Source of the DNA: a virus
Reading direction: 5' to 3' (one strand)
Length of the DNA: 64,000 nt
IMG/VR virus record: IMGVR_UViG_3300044684_000278
Span: 64,001-128,000 of that record
A program made the position numbers and the translations under genes. The notes beneath the pieces are model-generated. The model saw nothing but the letters and a program-made list of their open reading frames with translations. It searched no databases and was not told the DNA's origin. Numbering within the stretch: the first letter of the stretch is position 1; every line of letters begins with the position of its first letter. Positions 3,550 to 32,599 of this stretch are shown here, in pieces.

Positions 3550-3930
3550 CTAAATCTGCTCTGCAGACCCCTCTTTCTGTGAACAAAGATTGTCTATAAC
3601 TTTTTGAGTTTGCTTGTGCTTATAGTACACAATGGCCCTTCTAAGGGTCAGATCCAGCATATGGTAGAAGTCAAACTCCCCATACTGGATCTCTGCATCA
3701 GTGATCGTAAGCCTGACTGCCGGGTAACTAAGCAGCACATGGATATGCCCCACATGTCCCAGTATTTCATTTACCGTGCATTCAGTGGTGACATACGTAT
3801 CCAGGAAGCATTCCCTTCTCAGGAAATCCTGTGCATGTGTGTACGGGATCCTTTCACGGGGATGTCCGGGATAACCCATGGCTATCAGGTCTTCAGCAAC
3901 GTCAAGTGGTACGAATAGAGGCTTGTTCAT
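3550..3930 (-). CDS. hypothetical protein
   Basis: 126 aa ORF in minus-strand gene run. Confidence 0.7.
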   Translation of the reverse strand: MNKPLFVPLDVAEDLIAMGYPGHPRERIPYTHAQDFLRRECFLDTYVTTECTVNEILGHVGHIHVLLSYPAVRLTITDAEIQYGEFDFYHMLDLTLRRAIVYYKHKQTQKVIDNLCSQKEGSAEQI

Positions 3931-9208: not shown

Positions 9209-9252
9209 ATGTAGTAAGAGCCAGAAGTTAATCCGGCTCTTAAATAAGTTAA

Positions 9253-20442: not shown

Positions 20443-20459
20443 AGTATATTATTAGTAGG
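20443..20459 (+). promoter_or_regulatory. putative phage late promoter motif
   Basis: AGTATATTATTAGTAGG; related intergenic copies at 22950, 32685, 39627, 48053, 53547. Confidence 0.55.
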
Positions 20460-20520
20460 ATCAGTAAGCAATGGAGCTTCTGATTATTGCAGCAGGAACT
20501 GGCTAAGCAGTTTACACGTT

Positions 20521-21012
20521 ATGAAAACTACAGAATTAACAGGATACCGTATCCTGTCTTTCGTAGATCCACAATCAGGATCTTCTGAGAATATCTCAAA
20601 CTTTCGGCCTTATGCAATCCAAAGGGATTCAGATGGTGAGATCTTCACAATAGGTGACAGGTTCATTAACAAAAATGTGAAGCCTGGAACAAAGGCTCCT
20701 CATGGAGAGATTACCGGGTTTGAACTGCTGGAAGGCACAGTATTCATTAGACATACCTGGTCAGGAATAGGATTTTCTTTGAACAGTATAGAAAAAGACA
20801 TCACCCTTCCCTCCAGGTTTCAGATTAATGACAAGGTTGTCTTTATCATACAGGGAAAGGATTCCAATTTTGGCTGTTTTGATGCAGTAGTAAAAGGGGT
20901 TCATTTCTATAAAGGAAAAGTAAAGTATGACCTGGAACTGCAGTTTGGACAAGACGATTTCACCAGGATCTATAATATTGATTCCTGTTTTGTGGAGCCT
21001 ATAAAAAATTAA
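20521..21012 (+). CDS. hypothetical protein
   Basis: 163 aa, RDSDGEIFTIGD and FQINDKV SH3-like modules. Confidence 0.75.
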   Translation: MKTTELTGYRILSFVDPQSGSSENISNFRPYAIQRDSDGEIFTIGDRFINKNVKPGTKAPHGEITGFELLEGTVFIRHTWSGIGFSLNSIEKDITLPSRFQINDKVVFIIQGKDSNFGCFDAVVKGVHFYKGKVKYDLELQFGQDDFTRIYNIDSCFVEPIKN

Positions 21013-21055
21013 TACAGTCCCTGGAATTTTCTAAAATAATTAGCATATTTGCATC

Positions 21056-21133
21056 ATGATTTTTAACAACCCATTTCATCAGCAGCCCAACTTCTGGAAT
21101 CCCTTCCAGGGGCCTGGAGATGGTATGTGGTAA
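21056..21133 (+). CDS. putative attenuator leader peptide (25 aa)
   Basis: MIFNNPFHQQPNFWNPFQGPGDGMW; starts 4 nt after a CATATTTG (-7-box-like) element, so possibly leaderless. Confidence 0.7.
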   Translation: MIFNNPFHQQPNFWNPFQGPGDGMW

Positions 21134-21162
21134 TCAAGACAAATAAACATATTCATTAACTG

Positions 21163-21196
21163 AGCTCCTGGAATGCAAACCCCCAGGAGCTTTTTT
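21163..21196 (+). terminator. intrinsic terminator (attenuator) in front of the tRNA cluster
   Basis: AGCTCCTGG/CCAGGAGCT 9-bp stem followed by a T-tract, ending 5 nt before tRNA-Pro. Confidence 0.85.
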
Positions 21197-21201
21197 ATTT
21201 T

Positions 21202-21274
21202 CTGGATGTAGTGAAGTTGGTATCATGCCTGGTTTGGGACCAGGAGACCGCAAGTTCGAGTCTTGCCATCCAGA
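21202..21274 (+). tRNA. tRNA-Pro(UGG)
   Basis: CTGGATG/CATCCAG acceptor, CCTGG-TTTGGGA-CCAGG, GCAAG-TTCGAGT-CTTGC. Confidence 0.92.
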
Positions 21275-21281
21275 CTATTAC

Positions 21282-21356
21282 GGGACCTTAGCTCAGAGGT
21301 AGAGCAGCACCCTGTTAAGGTGATGGTCACAGGTTCAATCCCTGTAGGTCCCGCCA
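21282..21356 (+). tRNA. tRNA-Asn(GUU)
   Basis: GGGACCT/AGGTCCC acceptor, loop CTGTTAA, encoded CCA. Confidence 0.92.
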
Positions 21357-21359
21357 TAT

Positions 21360-21431
21360 TTTCCTGTAGTGTAGCTGGCAACACAAGAGATTTTGGCTCT
21401 CTTATCACTGGTTCGAACCCAGTCAGGAAAT
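21360..21431 (+). tRNA. tRNA-Gln(UUG)
   Basis: TTTCCTG/CAGGAAA acceptor, AGAGA-TTTTGGC-TCTCT, ACTGG-TTCGAAC-CCAGT. Confidence 0.9.
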
Positions 21432-21433
21432 CT

Positions 21434-21509
21434 GTGTCTGTAGCTTAATTGGTAGAGCACTGGTTTGTGGCACCAGCAGGTACGGGTTCAACTCCCGTCA
21501 GACACCCCA
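21434..21509 (+). tRNA. tRNA-His(GUG), no encoded G-1
   Basis: GTGTCTG/CAGACAC acceptor, C73, CCA, CTGGT-TTGTGGC-ACCAG. Confidence 0.92.
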
Positions 21510-21510
21510 T

Positions 21511-21583
21511 ATCCGTGTAGCTCAATTGGTAGAGCAGCGGTCTCCAAAACCGTGTGTTGGTGGTTCGAATCCATCCATGGGTG
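21511..21583 (+). tRNA. tRNA-Trp(CCA)
   Basis: ATCCGTG/CATGGGT acceptor, GCGGT-CTCCAAA-ACCGT. Confidence 0.9.
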
Positions 21584-21588
21584 CATCA

Positions 21589-21659
21589 GCCTTCTTCGTC
21601 CAATGGTAGGACTACGCACTTGTAATGCGTGTATGCTGGTTCGAGTCCGGCAGAAGGCT
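21589..21659 (+). tRNA. tRNA-Thr(UGU)
   Basis: GCCTTCT/AGAAGGC acceptor, ACGCA-CTTGTAA-TGCGT. Confidence 0.9.
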
Positions 21660-21714
21660 CCTTGATTATTCCAGGGACATGTTTTACTTTTACGCCCGTA
21701 AACCTAACGGTCCC

Positions 21715-22164
21715 ATGAAAACGAAAATCATCCTGCTGCTTTCCCTGCTGTTTATCTCCCTGAGTTCTTACTGCCAGCTTTCCAACCTTACAGATCCGAT
21801 CCGTAAAGATGAAGCTTATTGCCGGGCCCTCATGAAAAATGAAAAGGCTGCCTGGGAGGACTATGGTGAATCAGGAAAGACCGTCCATTATTCCTATCCG
21901 GATTACCTGATCACATTTACCTTCATCAAGAACCGGTGCGTTAATGTGCGCATTGACTTCGTGGTGAACGAAGATGTTGTGGATAAAACCATGTATCATT
22001 GGCTTTATGAAAAAAACTATGAGTCAGCCTTTGGCGGAACTTTGTGGGGCAAGATGCTGCCACAGCCTGGAAGATCAGATGCTTCATTTCCAGTAGCCGT
22101 ACAAAAACTGGACAAGTCCTCCTGGTGGCTTTATGACGTGCTGTACTATTCAGACAGTCACTAA
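21715..22164 (+). CDS. secreted/periplasmic protein
   Basis: Start moved to MKTKIILLLSLLFISLSSYCQ (signal peptide); the longer ORF overlaps tRNA-Thr. Confidence 0.7.
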   Translation: MKTKIILLLSLLFISLSSYCQLSNLTDPIRKDEAYCRALMKNEKAAWEDYGESGKTVHYSYPDYLITFTFIKNRCVNVRIDFVVNEDVVDKTMYHWLYEKNYESAFGGTLWGKMLPQPGRSDASFPVAVQKLDKSSWWLYDVLYYSDSH

Positions 22165-22923: not shown

Positions 22924-22967
22924 TAAATTTGTAGAGTTTAAACTTTATAAGTATATTATAGTGTAGG
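22924..22967 (+). promoter_or_regulatory. composite promoter of the late region
   Basis: TAAATTTGTAGAGTTTAAA...AGTATATTATAGTGTAGG, closely repeated at 32664-32701. Confidence 0.6.
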
Positions 22968-23525: not shown

Positions 23526-23681
23526 TGTAGGGTGGTGAAATTGGCAGACACACCGGATTGTCTATCCGGCATTTGATACACAGTGCGTTCTTTAAAAGCT
23601 ATCATCCATTAATATGCATTTGTTGTTTTATTCCCTCTCCCTGTATCAAATATGCTGGTTCGAGTCCAGCCCCTACAGCCA
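23526..23681 (+). ncRNA. 156-nt tRNA-like RNA with giant variable arm (nominal anticodon GUC)
   Basis: TGTAGGG/CCCTACA acceptor then G-CCA, class II-type D-arm GTGAAATTGGCAGACAC, CCGGA-TTGTCTA-TCCGG, 10-bp variable stem ATTTGATACA/TGTATCAAAT closing 61 nt, GCTGG-TTCGAGT-CCAGC. Confidence 0.85.
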
Positions 23682-27607: not shown

Positions 27608-29839
27608 ATGACACCAAACCCAACAACCACCACACCCTACATTACTGTACCTGTTTACGACAATGACGTTAAGATCTGGACCTCAAGAGACTTTCAAACA
27701 AGAGAAGACTATACGGCCTTCGTTAAGAGCGTCTTTAAAGAACCTGGCCTCTATGAGTTTGATGAGACCTCTTTCCTCTTTAATGAGCAGGCCCGCTATT
27801 TTGAACAGCACGGGGTCTACCCAGGCAACCTCTCTCCCTTCAGAAGCAAGGACTTCATCAAGTACTGGGACGATCAGAAAGACAAGTGCAGAAAGGGCGT
27901 TATTTATCAGCATGGAGGAAAGACCTGGTACCTGACCAGGGACTACTACATGTGGCTGAACTTTCTTCCCATCTATGACAAGGAAGAAAAGAAGTTCGGC
28001 TTTGCCAAGGTCCGGGATGCACAGTACCACATGGCTCTTTACGAGCTGCTGGCGGAGCTGCACTACAAGCATTCCTGCATCCTTAAGAAACGTCAGATTG
28101 CCTCCTCTTATTTCCACATTGCCAAACTCCTCAACCAGTACTGGTTTGAGCAGGGTGCCGTCATGAAACTGGGTGCCAGCCTCAAAGATTATATCAATGA
28201 GAAGGGCTCCTGGAAGTTTCTGGACGAGTACCGTAACTTCCTCAACGAACATACGGCCTGGTACCGCCCTAATGAGCCCGACAAGGTCTTATCATGGCAA
28301 CAACGTATCAAAGTAAGGATCGGAGGCCGCGATACCTACAAGGGCTTAAAAAGCGTGTTTACGGGCATGTCCTTTGAGAAGGATGCCACTAATGGTGTAG
28401 GTGGTCCGGTAACCTACTTCTTCCATGAGGAAGCGGGTATCGCACCCAAGATGGACGAGACCTACGGGTATATGCGTCCTGCCATGAAATCCGGTATGAT
28501 TACTACCGGTATGTTCATAGCGGCAGGCTCCGTGGGTGATCTGGACCAGTGCGGTCCCTTGAAAAAATACATCCTGAACCCGGATGCCAACGATTTCTAT
28601 TCAGTAGAGACTGACCTACTGGATGATAAGGGCACGCTGGGCCGATCCGGGCTCTTTATTCCGGAGCAGTGGAGTATGCCTCCTTACATAGATGAATTTG
28701 GCAACAGCCTCGTTAAAGAGGCCCTGGATGCCCTGGATGCTTACTTTGCCCAATGCAAGCGTGATCTTGATCCTGCAGCCTACCAGCTGGAGCTCTCCCA
28801 GCACCCCCGCAACATTGCAGAAGCCTTTGCCTCCCGTAAGGAAGCCCTCTTCCCCATACACCTGGTGAGCCAGCAGCTCAGAAGGATCGAGGAGAAGCAA
28901 TACCCCTGTGAATACCTGGAGCTCTTTGAAACAGAGGGCGGGAAGATAGATGCCAGGGCTTCCCGAAAGATCCCCATCATGGAGTTCCCGATCTCTAAAA
29001 AGACGGAAGACAAAGAAGGCGTGATCTGTGTGTGGGAACGTCCCATGCAGAATGCTCCCTGGGGAACGTACTATGCTTCTGTGGATCCAGTGGGAGAAGG
29101 AAAGACCACAACCTCCGAGTCTCTCTGCTCCATCATCGTTTACAAGAATGCTATTGAAGTCACTAAAGATGAAGGCAACGGAAAAGTCTCCACCTACGTG
29201 GAAGGAGATAAAATAGTAGCCACCTGGTGCGGAAGGTTTGATGACTTAAAGAAAACCCATGAAAGATTGGAGTACATCATCCGCTGGTACAATGCCTGGA
29301 CCCTGGTGGAGAACAACGTCTCCCTGTTCATCCAGTACATGATCTCCAAGCGTATGCAACGCTTCCTGGTGCCCAAGGATCAGATCCTGTTCTTAAAGGA
29401 ACTGGGTTCCAACATGAACGTATACGCGGACTATGGCTGGAAGAATACTGGCACCATGTTCAAGAACCACCTGCTCTCTTATGGCATCCAGTTCATGGAA
29501 GAGGAGCTGGATCATGAATTTGACGAGAATGGAAAGATCCTGAGCACTGTCCGTGGTGTGGAAAGGATCCCTGATCCCATGATCCTCACGGAGGCCGGAG
29601 CCTACCATCACGGCCTCAACGTGGACCGCCTGGTATCCTACTGTTCCCTGGTAGCTTTTGTTCATATACAGCGGGCCAGCCGTGGTATGCAAAAACGTGT
29701 AGAAGTGACCCAGGATAAATTGGAGAATTCCTCTAAAATGAGTAAATTAAATATGAGCCCCTTCCGTCACATTGGAGGCTCTACCTCTACAAACAACAGC
29801 AGCTTTTTCAAGAGAAATCCCTTCAAGAATCTCCGCTAA
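27608..29839 (+). CDS. terL: terminase large subunit
   Basis: 743 aa; ILKKRQIASS (Walker A variant), FFHEEAG (Walker B), YYASVDPV nuclease motif, LVENN; precedes portal. Confidence 0.9.
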   Translation: MTPNPTTTTPYITVPVYDNDVKIWTSRDFQTREDYTAFVKSVFKEPGLYEFDETSFLFNEQARYFEQHGVYPGNLSPFRSKDFIKYWDDQKDKCRKGVIYQHGGKTWYLTRDYYMWLNFLPIYDKEEKKFGFAKVRDAQYHMALYELLAELHYKHSCILKKRQIASSYFHIAKLLNQYWFEQGAVMKLGASLKDYINEKGSWKFLDEYRNFLNEHTAWYRPNEPDKVLSWQQRIKVRIGGRDTYKGLKSVFTGMSFEKDATNGVGGPVTYFFHEEAGIAPKMDETYGYMRPAMKSGMITTGMFIAAGSVGDLDQCGPLKKYILNPDANDFYSVETDLLDDKGTLGRSGLFIPEQWSMPPYIDEFGNSLVKEALDALDAYFAQCKRDLDPAAYQLELSQHPRNIAEAFASRKEALFPIHLVSQQLRRIEEKQYPCEYLELFETEGGKIDARASRKIPIMEFPISKKTEDKEGVICVWERPMQNAPWGTYYASVDPVGEGKTTTSESLCSIIVYKNAIEVTKDEGNGKVSTYVEGDKIVATWCGRFDDLKKTHERLEYIIRWYNAWTLVENNVSLFIQYMISKRMQRFLVPKDQILFLKELGSNMNVYADYGWKNTGTMFKNHLLSYGIQFMEEELDHEFDENGKILSTVRGVERIPDPMILTEAGAYHHGLNVDRLVSYCSLVAFVHIQRASRGMQKRVEVTQDKLENSSKMSKLNMSPFRHIGGSTSTNNSSFFKRNPFKNLR

Positions 29840-29863: not shown

Positions 29864-32599
29864 ATGCAGATATACAATGCCCTTGATTTAAAAAAGGGAG
29901 CCAAGACTGAGCTTAAAAGAATGGGTACCCTCACCCAGCCCGTACAGTTCCTGCCCCAGAAGGATAAGGATATTGAATGGAGTTCCTGGAATATGGACTG
30001 GCTGGAGTTCCAGGGAATGAAGCAGCTGAGGCGTAATGCCAAACGGCTAATGAAGAACTACAAGCTGGCCAAAGGTATTATTGATAAGTCCGACTACATC
30101 GTAGAGGATGACAATGAATACGGGGAGATGATTGACATTCTCACCAAAGAAGATGAATCTGCCCTGGAGCTGAAGTTCTACCCCATCATCCCCAATGTGA
30201 TCAACGTATTATGCACAGAGTTCTCCAAACGGGTCAGCAAGATCCAGTTCCGTGCCGTGGATGACATCTCCTACAATGAGATGCTGGAAGAGAAGCGGGC
30301 CATGATCGAGCAGACGCTGCTTGCGGAAGCAGAGCAGAAGATGCGGATCAAGCTCATGAACATGGGCCTGGCCGAAGACTCTGAGCAGGGCAAGCAGATG
30401 ATGGACCCACAGAACCTCAAGTCCCTTCCGGAGATCGAGCAGTTCTTCCAGAAAGACTACAGGTCTCTGCAGGAAGAGTGGGCTACCCACCAGTTTAAAA
30501 TAGACGAGCAGCGTTTCAAGATGCAGGAGCTGGAAGAGCGCGGCTTCAGGGACATGCTGATCACAGACCGTGAGTTCTGGCATTTCCAGATGTATGAGGA
30601 TGACTATGAAGTGGAGCTGTGGAACCCACTGCTTACCTTCTATCACAAGTCTCCTGATGTACGCTACGTATCCAATGGGAACTACGTGGGCAAGATGGAT
30701 ATGATGTCCATCCCAGATGTGATTGACAAATATGGCTGGATGATGACCCAGGACCAGTTAGAGTCCCTGGAGGCCATCTACCCGGTACGATCTGCCGGTT
30801 ATAACATGCCGGGTGTGCAGAATGATGGCAGCTTCTATGATGCTACCCGTTCCCACGAATGGAACACCCAGATGCCATCCCTGGGCATGAGGCAGTTCAC
30901 TTCCATGTATGACAATGCCATGCCTAACGGGGACATCGTCAACTGGATCCTGGGAGAGAGTGAAGACCTCTTTGACCACGGTAACTCCTGGCTTTTAAGG
31001 GTCACCACCGTATACTGGAAAAGCCAGCGTAAGGTGGGCCACCTGACCAAGATCACCGAAGACGGCCAGCTGATCCAGGACATTGTCACTGAGGATTACA
31101 AGGTGACCGACAAGCCTGTGTACAACACGGCTGTTTATAAAACAAAGACAAAAGACAACCTCATATTTGGGGAACACATAGACTGGATCTGGATCAACGA
31201 GGTATGGGGCGGGGTCAAGATCGGCCCTAACCGTCCGGCCTACTGGGGCACCAGCAATCCTGGGGGGATCAACCCGATCTACCTGGGCCTGAAAGGTGGC
31301 CAGCCAGGAAGACTTCCTTTCCAGTTCAAGGGGGACGATAACCTTTACGGATGCAAGCTTCCGGTTGAAGGTGCTGTCTTCTCTGACCGCAACACCAAAT
31401 CTGTCGCTCTGGTAGATACCATGAAGCCGTATCAGATTGCCTATAACGTAGTAAATAATCAGATTGCTGACATACTCGTGGATGAACTGGGTACCGTGAT
31501 CCTTTTGGATCAGAATGCCCTTCCACGCCACTCTCTGGGAGAAGACTGGGGCAAGAACAACCTGGCCAAGGCTTATGTAGCCATGAAGAATTTCCAGATG
31601 CTGCCACTGGATACAACCATTACAAACACGGAAAATGCCCTCAACTTTCAACACTATAGTGTCCTCAACCTGGAACAGACTCAGAGGCTTATGTCTCGTG
31701 TTCAGCTTGCAACTTATTTTAAGAACCAGGCGTTTGAAGTCATCGGGATCAACCCACAAAGAATGGGGCAGCAGATCTCTCAGGAGACAGCAACAGGTGT
31801 GGAACAAGCCCTGAATGCCAGCTATGCCCAGACAGAGATTTACTTTACCCAGCACAGTGACTATTTGATGCCAAGGGTCCACCAGATGCGGACCGACCTG
31901 GCCCAGTACTACCACTCTACCAAGCCTTCCATAAGGCTGCAGTATATCACCTCCAATGATGAGAAGGTGAACTTCCAGATCAACGGGACCAAGCTCCTGA
32001 TGAGGGACTTCAACATCTTCTGTACGACCAATGTCAATGCCCGTGCCATCATGGAGCAGATGAAGCAGCTCGTGCTGAATAATAATACCATGGGTGCTTC
32101 TGTGTATGACCTGGGCAATGTGATCAAGGCAGACTCTGTGGCGGAACTGACCTCAGTACTGAAAGCAGCAGAACAGAAAGCCAATGCCATCCGCCAGGAG
32201 CAGCAGCAGCATGAACAACAGATGCAGCAACAACAACTCCAGAGCCAGGAGCAGCAGAAACAAATGCAGCTGCAATGGGATGCGGACCAGGCAGACAAGA
32301 ACCGCCAGAAGGACATCATGGTGGCCGAGATCCGCGCAGCCGGTATGGGTGCAGGCGTAGACCTGAATAACAATGCCCAGAATGACTACATGGATGCCCT
32401 CCAGCAGATAGAAGCCTCCAGGCAGTATCAGGATACCATGGACTTTAAACGCCAGCAGGAATCCAACAAGCTGATCCAGGCTGATCAGAAGAACCAATTG
32501 GAACGGGAAAAGCTTCAGGCCCAGAGGGAACGTGACCGCACAGCCCTGGAAGTGGCCCGAACCAATAAGAACAAGTTTGACAAACCCAAAGGGAAGTAA
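29864..32599 (+). CDS. portal protein (crAss-like)
   Basis: 911 aa, YPIIPNVINVL, LPVEG, Q-rich helical C-terminal barrel; TerL-portal-scaffold-MCP synteny. Confidence 0.88.
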   Translation: MQIYNALDLKKGAKTELKRMGTLTQPVQFLPQKDKDIEWSSWNMDWLEFQGMKQLRRNAKRLMKNYKLAKGIIDKSDYIVEDDNEYGEMIDILTKEDESALELKFYPIIPNVINVLCTEFSKRVSKIQFRAVDDISYNEMLEEKRAMIEQTLLAEAEQKMRIKLMNMGLAEDSEQGKQMMDPQNLKSLPEIEQFFQKDYRSLQEEWATHQFKIDEQRFKMQELEERGFRDMLITDREFWHFQMYEDDYEVELWNPLLTFYHKSPDVRYVSNGNYVGKMDMMSIPDVIDKYGWMMTQDQLESLEAIYPVRSAGYNMPGVQNDGSFYDATRSHEWNTQMPSLGMRQFTSMYDNAMPNGDIVNWILGESEDLFDHGNSWLLRVTTVYWKSQRKVGHLTKITEDGQLIQDIVTEDYKVTDKPVYNTAVYKTKTKDNLIFGEHIDWIWINEVWGGVKIGPNRPAYWGTSNPGGINPIYLGLKGGQPGRLPFQFKGDDNLYGCKLPVEGAVFSDRNTKSVALVDTMKPYQIAYNVVNNQIADILVDELGTVILLDQNALPRHSLGEDWGKNNLAKAYVAMKNFQMLPLDTTITNTENALNFQHYSVLNLEQTQRLMSRVQLATYFKNQAFEVIGINPQRMGQQISQETATGVEQALNASYAQTEIYFTQHSDYLMPRVHQMRTDLAQYYHSTKPSIRLQYITSNDEKVNFQINGTKLLMRDFNIFCTTNVNARAIMEQMKQLVLNNNTMGASVYDLGNVIKADSVAELTSVLKAAEQKANAIRQEQQQHEQQMQQQQLQSQEQQKQMQLQWDADQADKNRQKDIMVAEIRAAGMGAGVDLNNNAQNDYMDALQQIEASRQYQDTMDFKRQQESNKLIQADQKNQLEREKLQAQRERDRTALEVARTNKNKFDKPKGK

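Follow-up and report, generated by a model that had tools for sequence, protein, structure and literature searches.

A candidate leader-peptide attenuator in front of a phage tRNA gene cluster

The 64,000-nucleotide stretch analysed here (the window; bases 64001-128000 of the 136,320-bp virus record IMGVR_UViG_3300044684_000278, which has direct terminal repeats) carries a cluster of six transfer RNA (tRNA) genes immediately preceded by a 25-codon open reading frame (ORF) and an intrinsic terminator. This arrangement is probably a ribosome-mediated (leader-peptide) transcription attenuator with tRNA-specific sensing, a reading to which we give a probability of roughly 0.6. The analysis was carried out entirely in silico, and each of the tests that were run went as the attenuator interpretation predicts: the codon bias of the ORF is specific to its frame, the bias is retained in the single relative that carries the module, and folding with ribosome masks exchanges one RNA structure for another.

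In the mechanism we infer, which comprises a transcript start, translation of the leader, coupling and a response to tRNA supply, a host-type promoter would start the transcript at or beside the ATG of the ORF. Were the ORF left untranslated, or translated quickly to its stop codon, its two halves would pair with each other, the 5' arm of the terminator would remain free and transcription would stop just before tRNA-Pro. A ribosome lingering on codons 1-13 (Asn, Pro, His, Gln, Phe) would hold the 5' half of the ORF, after which the 3' half (21104-21128) would pair with 21147-21173 and sequester the 5' arm of the terminator. RNA polymerase would then go on to transcribe the six tRNA genes, from which RNase P would trim off the leader. 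The net effect would be negative feedback, with the tRNAs made when those same codons decode slowly.

Codon bias and competing RNA structures of the leader

The leader ORF occupies 21056-21133 on the plus strand, with an ATG start, 25 codons and a TAA stop, and its translation is MIFNNPFHQQPNFWNPFQGPGDGMW. Residues 4-18 consist of twelve N, P, H, Q or W and three F, as had been claimed in an earlier interpretation made from the letters of the stretch (the sequence-only reading). That reading had also described the ORF itself, a promoter-like box 4 nt before its ATG, a hairpin terminator of 9 bp with a T tract, two further pairings and six tRNA genes directly behind them, and all of these were recovered, the terminator stem having 10 pairs and the whole element a span of 21162-21201. 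The tRNA genes, tRNA-Pro(tgg), Asn(gtt), Gln(ttg), His(gtg), Trp(cca) and Thr(tgt), lie on the plus strand at 21202-21661 (58-68 bits against the Rfam tRNA model), tRNA-Pro starting at 21202 and tRNA-Thr ending at 21661, with spacers of 1-6 nt between them.

After the initial Met, 14 of the 24 leader residues belong to the six amino acids of the downstream tRNAs, against 23.9% in the long ORFs of the phage. This in-set share is the highest among the 569 ATG ORFs of 20-40 codons in the six frames of the 136-kb genome and is matched by 0.15% of 108,637 stop-free 24-codon windows, also taken from six frames. The other five frames of the leader stretch contain 6, 6, 8, 7 and 6 in-set residues, and both other plus-strand frames are interrupted by stops; the enrichment is confined to the leader frame, and the codon bias is therefore frame-specific. 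An A+C-rich composition was considered as the source of the bias and rejected, as the ORF contains 20 A, 19 C, 22 T and 17 G and its other frames are unenriched. Codons 1-13, which include three for N, two for P, one for H, two for Q and three for F, would form the sensing window.

A putative Bacteroidota-type -7 box, CATATTTG, is located at 21044-21051 on the plus strand, 4 nt ahead of the ATG, and matches TAnnTTTG at 7 of 8 positions. The sigma-A box TAnnTTTG sits at -12 to -5 (PMC9723704), and an identical consensus is given in PMC7366714. Since the box at 21044-21051 fits this geometry, the transcript is predicted to start at 21056, the A of the ATG, which would give a leaderless mRNA. In the related genome the -7 box is a perfect TAnnTTTG, with a predicted start one base before the ATG. 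Only a minority of mRNAs in the phylum are leaderless, 5.5% in a flavobacterium (PMC9723704), and about 3.7% of 5' untranslated regions in Bacteroides are under 10 nt (PMC7366714). TAnnTTTG is not enriched between the genes of the window (5 of 31 sites are intergenic, intergenic DNA being 10% of the sequence), so the promoter call at the leader draws only on the position of the box and on the perfect box of the relative. Elsewhere in the window, two strong boxes, TAAATTTGTAGA, precede genes at 22924 and 52009.

The intrinsic terminator, at 21162-21201 on the plus strand, has a stem of 21162-21171/21183-21192, an 11-nt loop and a T tract at 21191-21201. Its 10 pairs comprise an 8-pair G+C-rich core, one A-U and one G-U (-16.6 kcal/mol), and its tail of six T, one A and four T reaches the first base of tRNA-Pro. 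A consensus terminator scan with a loop limit of 8 misses this 11-nt-loop hairpin. A promoter between the hairpin and tRNA-Pro was ruled out, as there is no room for one and 21134-21201, between the ORF and the cluster, contains no TTTG. With the T tract abutting tRNA-Pro, it follows that the tRNAs need read-through of the hairpin, whichever promoter serves them.

Two other structures share segments with each other or with the terminator, and the three are mutually exclusive. The leader hairpin (anti-antiterminator; 21057-21136, plus strand) pairs the 5' half of the ORF with its 3' half, with an inner stem of 21094-21099/21104-21109, and folds at -26.8 kcal/mol, a stability reached by 3% of equal-length random genome windows. 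The antiterminator (21104-21173, plus strand) consists of 21104-21113/21164-21173 (10 pairs), 21119-21123/21153-21157 and 21124-21128/21147-21151, and its -24.7 kcal/mol is reached by 1.6% of random genome windows. The pairings 1:2 (21091-99/21104-12) and 2:3 (21104-13/21164-73) are present as they had been proposed, and the antiterminator is longer than had been seen before, with about 20 pairs between 21104-21128 and 21147-21173 that include the whole 5' arm of the terminator. Duplexes at least as strong as that of the leader with the terminator arm occur in 1.5% of random windows for the window and 0.2% for the relative. The richness of the genome in CCWGG was examined as a source of these pairings and rejected, as null distributions drawn from the genome's own windows still give 0.3-1.6%.

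Folded without constraint, 21040-21201 forms the leader hairpin followed by the terminator (-48.8 kcal/mol, z = -3.87). In the mask test the transcript was folded up to the base before the 3' arm of the terminator, with a 30-nt ribosome footprint kept unpaired. In this prefix fold the antiterminator forms when the A site is on codons 1-13 and does not form when it is on codon 15 or later, in line with the earlier proposal that a ribosome on the early codons would free it. When the leader was replaced by random genome stretches, 20 of 1500 showed switch behaviour, defined as a terminator arm that is free without a mask and has at least 8 of its 8 core bases paired upstream with one. The region combines a terminator between ORF and genes, an antiterminator that excludes this terminator and an anti-antiterminator that a ribosome can mask, as in leader-peptide attenuators. 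It likewise has a short ORF in the leader, a 25-codon ATG frame that is open in the relative too and is predicted to be translated, and regulatory codons, which in the window correspond imperfectly to the cluster (Phe and Thr).

Divergence of the module in a related genome

The single relative with the module, a 136,295-bp contig (L019), is 99% identical to the window from 21250 on and 98.6% identical before 19020, and only 73.5% identical over 21047-21275. Its cluster has the order Pro-Phe-Tyr-Asn-Gln-His-Trp-Thr. The 26-codon leader in front of it, MILTTTYCHQHPFFWNQIQGPGNSVW, has 17 of 25 residues in the set of these eight tRNAs and represents all eight amino acids, including three Thr codons, one Tyr codon and Phe codons. 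The sequence-only reading had named as caveats the lack of a Thr codon in the leader and of a tRNA-Phe in the window; Thr codons and tRNA-Phe are both present in the relative, and the mismatches of the window itself remain. Most simply, the window module may derive from a cluster that had tRNA-Phe, or Phe-Tyr may have been lost at the Pro/Asn junction. A mosaic exchange is visible between window 20454-21275 and positions 2854-3644 of the relative, in which the upstream gene is replaced and tRNA-Phe and tRNA-Tyr occur only in the relative. The leader, terminator and tRNA-Pro were evidently exchanged as a unit.

The leader frame is open in both genomes, and their alignment needs one in-frame, one-codon indel, the inserted codon being Phe. 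Over codons 3-12 the two leaders differ at 13 of 30 bases and 9 of 10 residues, mostly through second positions, and 8 of the 10 residues stay in the set; random substitution of the same number of bases keeps at least 8 in-set residues in 3.0% of stop-free trials. The class of residue appears to be kept and the residues themselves are not conserved, which fits regulatory codons and not a functional peptide. The 3' half of the ORF differs at 7 of 39 bases, with third positions conserved as well, and coincides with the pairing segments.

Of the terminator pairs, nine are unchanged between the two genomes, one is compensatory and none is broken, and pair covariation is suggestive for the terminator and thin elsewhere. 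The structures of the relative are also unusually stable, with 0.3% of random windows folding as well as its antiterminator and 0 of 3000 as well as its leader hairpin. Masks at codons 1-14 of the relative give the antiterminator in the prefix fold, and the full-length minimum-energy fold switches for codons 6-14. The sequence-only reading had suggested examining relatives for leader content that varies with the cluster and for compensatory changes in the pairings. In this one relative the leader has Thr, Tyr and Phe codons and the cluster the matching tRNAs, and the terminator has its one compensatory pair; for the antiterminator and leader hairpin the result was mixed.

Alternative explanations and known systems

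Several observations weigh against the attenuator. The locus was picked by the sequence-only reading from a very large number of windows; this lowers the weight of the composition p-value, and composition by itself would not be enough. The leader of the window has four Phe codons and no Thr, and its cluster has a tRNA-Thr and no tRNA-Phe; the leader codons CCC, CCT, ACC and ACT would need extended wobble for tRNAs with U34. The -7 box of the window has one mismatch and no clear -33 element. Hairpins followed by T tracts are common here (49 candidates), and one behind the upstream gene is unremarkable. The full-length minimum-energy fold of the window retains the terminator under every mask, so read-through would have to be kinetic, and the terminator arm pairs 8 bases with something upstream under a mask in 278 of 1500 random leaders. 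In a MAFFT alignment of the two genomes, 11 of the antiterminator pairs are unchanged, 2 one-sided, 2 compensatory and 5 broken, and 15 of the leader-hairpin pairs are unchanged, 2 one-sided and 11 broken, the outer stem of the relative lying in another register. The unmasked prefix of the relative slightly prefers the antiterminator (-33.6 versus -31.7 kcal/mol). The module comes from two genomes only, which are homologous, and their figures are not independent. Among the sequencing runs listed as containing the stretch there is no RNA run.

The frequency of terminators, the hairpin's position 150 nt past the stop codon of the upstream gene (20521-21012), the readiness of the arm to pair with some upstream stretch in random leaders and the post hoc choice of the locus from a very large scan would all suit an ordinary terminator of that gene. 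The ORF would then be a chance frame, and the tRNAs would be expressed by constitutive leak-through or from long upstream transcripts, with translation playing no regulatory part. This explanation is unlikely, as it does not account for the frame-specific codon bias (rank 1 of 569), for the retention of that bias across 43% base divergence in the relative, for the fact that both genomes have two mutually exclusive structures of unusual stability, or for the placement of a -7 box such that the transcript would begin at the ATG; moreover, the relative has a different upstream gene and has kept the module.

The folds, the masks and the switch test apply equally to a translation-dependent attenuator that senses general translation capacity, such as host shut-off or ribosome availability, with the codon bias being secondary. 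The loose coupling that such a sensor would tolerate fits the mismatches of the window, with Phe codons and no tRNA-Phe, and tRNA-Thr and no Thr codons. It needs no bias at all, yet the leader is strongly biased towards the cluster's amino acids and the relative retains this bias despite its changed residues, which makes a general sensor improbable. We give least credence to a separate small gene or small RNA that has a function unrelated to the tRNAs and codes for a 25-26-aa peptide whose tail, FWN...QGPG...W, is conserved. The promoter-like box, ORF and terminator do make up a complete unit of about 145 nt, and the peptide shows stronger conservation in its C-terminal half than in its N-terminal one. 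However, the conserved half is also kept at third positions (2 third-position changes in the 13 aligned codons 14-26, stop excluded), which together with the overlap with the pairing segments points to a constraint on the RNA. The change of 9 of 10 residues in the N-terminal half, mostly at second positions, is unlike purifying selection on a peptide, and a stand-alone gene would leave the tRNA cluster without a promoter of its own.

Leader-peptide attenuators control amino-acid biosynthetic operons, as in trpL, hisL, pheL and leuL, and are multivalent in thrL and ilvL. T-box riboswitches, which control synthetase or amino-acid genes, contact uncharged tRNA themselves and work without an ORF. 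The phage element resembles attenuators of the trpL and hisL type in having a short ORF rich in codons that report on the product, three overlapping pairings and a terminator directly before the genes, and resembles the thr and ilv attenuators in reading several amino acids at once. It differs from them in that phage tRNA genes would be regulated instead of enzymes, the signal would be the tRNA species and not the amino acid, it comes from a phage and its transcript is predicted to be leaderless, and it belongs to no Rfam leader family. It shares with the T-box a choice between terminator and antiterminator that would report tRNA status, and differs in being based on an ORF and in having tRNA genes as its target. 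The T-box covariance model has no match at gathering or at E up to 10. No Rfam family besides tRNA reaches its gathering cut-off; the best plus-strand matches below threshold were leaders of the attenuator type, PyrG_leader (23.7 bits, cut-off 65), His_leader (22.3, cut-off 49) and the trpB motif (17.6, cut-off 59), and were given no weight. The pheL leader-peptide attenuator is described in PMC3082878.

Closer to the likely host, signs of leader-peptide attenuation before amino-acid operons, themselves only predicted, are reported for Flavobacterium psychrophilum (PMC9723704), and small ORFs in long 5' untranslated regions are reported for Bacteroides thetaiotaomicron (PMC7366714). These candidates have in common with the phage leader the likely host phylum, translation without Shine-Dalgarno (SD) sequences, TAnnTTTG promoters and short ORFs ahead of regulated operons, and unlike the phage leader they precede cellular amino-acid biosynthesis or protein genes. 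The closest conceptual parallel is the cryptic trn operon of Anabaena sp. PCC 7120, which has 26 tRNA genes and is induced under translational stress (PMC8421152, PMC10272220). Like the phage cluster as interpreted here, it is an accessory tRNA array that stays off by default and is turned on by impaired translation. The Anabaena operon is instead controlled at its promoter, through direct repeats bound by the repressor TrcR (PMC8421152, PMC10272220), and the main text of PMC8421152 nowhere uses the words leader, attenuat- or terminator.

The rank statistic used for the leader was also applied to five other phages (EcP1, Faust, BUCT194, vB_SupP_AX and cr111_1), selected only for tRNAs resembling those of the window, and in none of them was an upstream small ORF top-ranked, indicating that a top rank is not reached automatically and that the design is not universal. 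In Caulobacter phage phiCbK (L038, JX100813 30000-70000), rho-independent terminators are annotated directly before three tRNA blocks. The 45-aa gp083 precedes a Pro-Pro-Lys-Lys-Leu-Leu-Leu-Ala-Ser-Ser stretch; 31 of its 44 residues belong to the amino acids of these tRNAs, and it ranks 6 of 382 among the small ORFs of the 40-kb locus; the best control rank in this phage is 3 of 382, for a one-tRNA block. Its terminator-fronted tRNA blocks with a small ORF enriched in the amino acids of the cluster resemble the arrangement in the window and are compatible with the attenuator design. The pattern is weaker than in the window, the phage and host are unrelated, and the genome is G+C-rich, so that A, L, S and P are common in it. 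phiCbK also has a 32-codon ATG ORF behind a TTGACA-17-TAGGGT promoter-like site, ahead of a Phe-Val-Ile-Gln block.

No paper on leader-peptide attenuation of tRNA genes came up in full-text literature searches, in agreement with the sequence-only reading, by which no attenuator on a phage tRNA array is known to have been described. What is probably new here is the application of trp/his/thr attenuator logic to phage tRNA genes. It is not settled why tRNA genes are carried by phages and by what means phages control them. The usual answers are the matching of codon usage and escape from tRNA-targeting defences, both of which leave regulation unaddressed. If the attenuator reading is true, this would be the first case found of tRNA species, and not an amino acid, under direct translational feedback, and the element would be a compact, portable sensor of codon-specific decoding speed, for which the prediction is that changing the start codon or the identity of codons 4-13 alters read-through. 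A broader proposal is tentative. Some phages might tune their own tRNA supply, with a leaderless mini-gene that samples the decoding speed of the codon families served by its tRNAs and opens the terminator on shortage. Its codon content would evolve with the cluster, as the Thr and Tyr codons and the eight tRNAs including Tyr of the relative suggest, and the design might be general among unrelated phages and could answer depletion or cleavage of host tRNAs within one infection cycle. A link to tRNA-cleaving defences is pure speculation.

Genomic setting and further searches

Genes in the window point left as far as about 19500 and right from 19776 on. Downstream of the tRNA cluster lie the terminase large subunit gene (TerL; 27608-29839) and, 3' of it, the portal gene (29864-32599). 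Co-oriented with the cluster, a gene at 21715-22164 (plus strand) encodes a 149-aa protein with a signal-peptide-like start and may be in the same transcription unit as the tRNAs. This protein has no family match and, besides the window's own protein, a single match, which is 53% identical.

An SD-like word precedes 17 of 155 long phage ORFs, compared with a background of 13.5%, which amounts to no Shine-Dalgarno signal. The regions 5' of the phage genes are A-rich and G-poor, as in Bacteroidota, and the DNA runs containing the stretch carry the labels soil or rhizosphere metagenome. Given the genes without SD words, these upstream regions, some TAnnTTTG boxes and the soil and rhizosphere sources, the host, which is uncultured, likely belongs to the Bacteroidota.

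Searches for further relatives covered proteins, DNA patterns and sequencing runs. The upstream 163-aa protein has no relatives among viral contigs, and the upstream 212-aa protein matched only the contig of the known relative. Three DNA patterns built from blocks common to both genomes again matched that contig only, and a degenerate back-translation of the leader gave 0 matches. The TerL search returned 21 loci, with a tRNA cluster within the fetched flanks only in the known relative, and five longer records of TerL relatives have at most one tRNA each; the TerL search of genome contigs returned none. One metagenome scan yielded five stretches, all G+C-rich chance matches with no tRNAs nearby, and contigs of four DNA runs contained only a source-like contig and cellular tRNA-Trp look-alikes, with no third variant. 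One TerL relative (L006; about 69% identity) has an 85-nt tRNA-Asp(gtc) at 3825-3909, just 5' of its terminase gene.

Of the nine tRNA genes in the whole phage genome, six make up the cluster at 21202-21661. A tRNA-like gene at window 23526-23681 on the plus strand, just 5' of tRNA-Met, is split by a segment of about 76 nt that separates its anticodon region from its T arm. With introns allowed, ARAGORN reports a tRNA-Thr(tgt) whose intron measures 76 nt; default ARAGORN and Rfam make no call, and by eye its loop could alternatively read GTC (Asp). On the minus strand, tRNA-Ile(tat) is preceded at a distance of 4 nt by a perfect 8-pair hairpin (9213-9236) that has no T tract. CCWGG occurs in 849 copies in the genome, about 4.4 times the expectation from base composition and only 1.19 times the third-order Markov expectation. 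CGWCG occurs in 9 copies, and the codon TCG is used 38 times compared with 680 for TCC; the phage genome seems to avoid CG-containing words.

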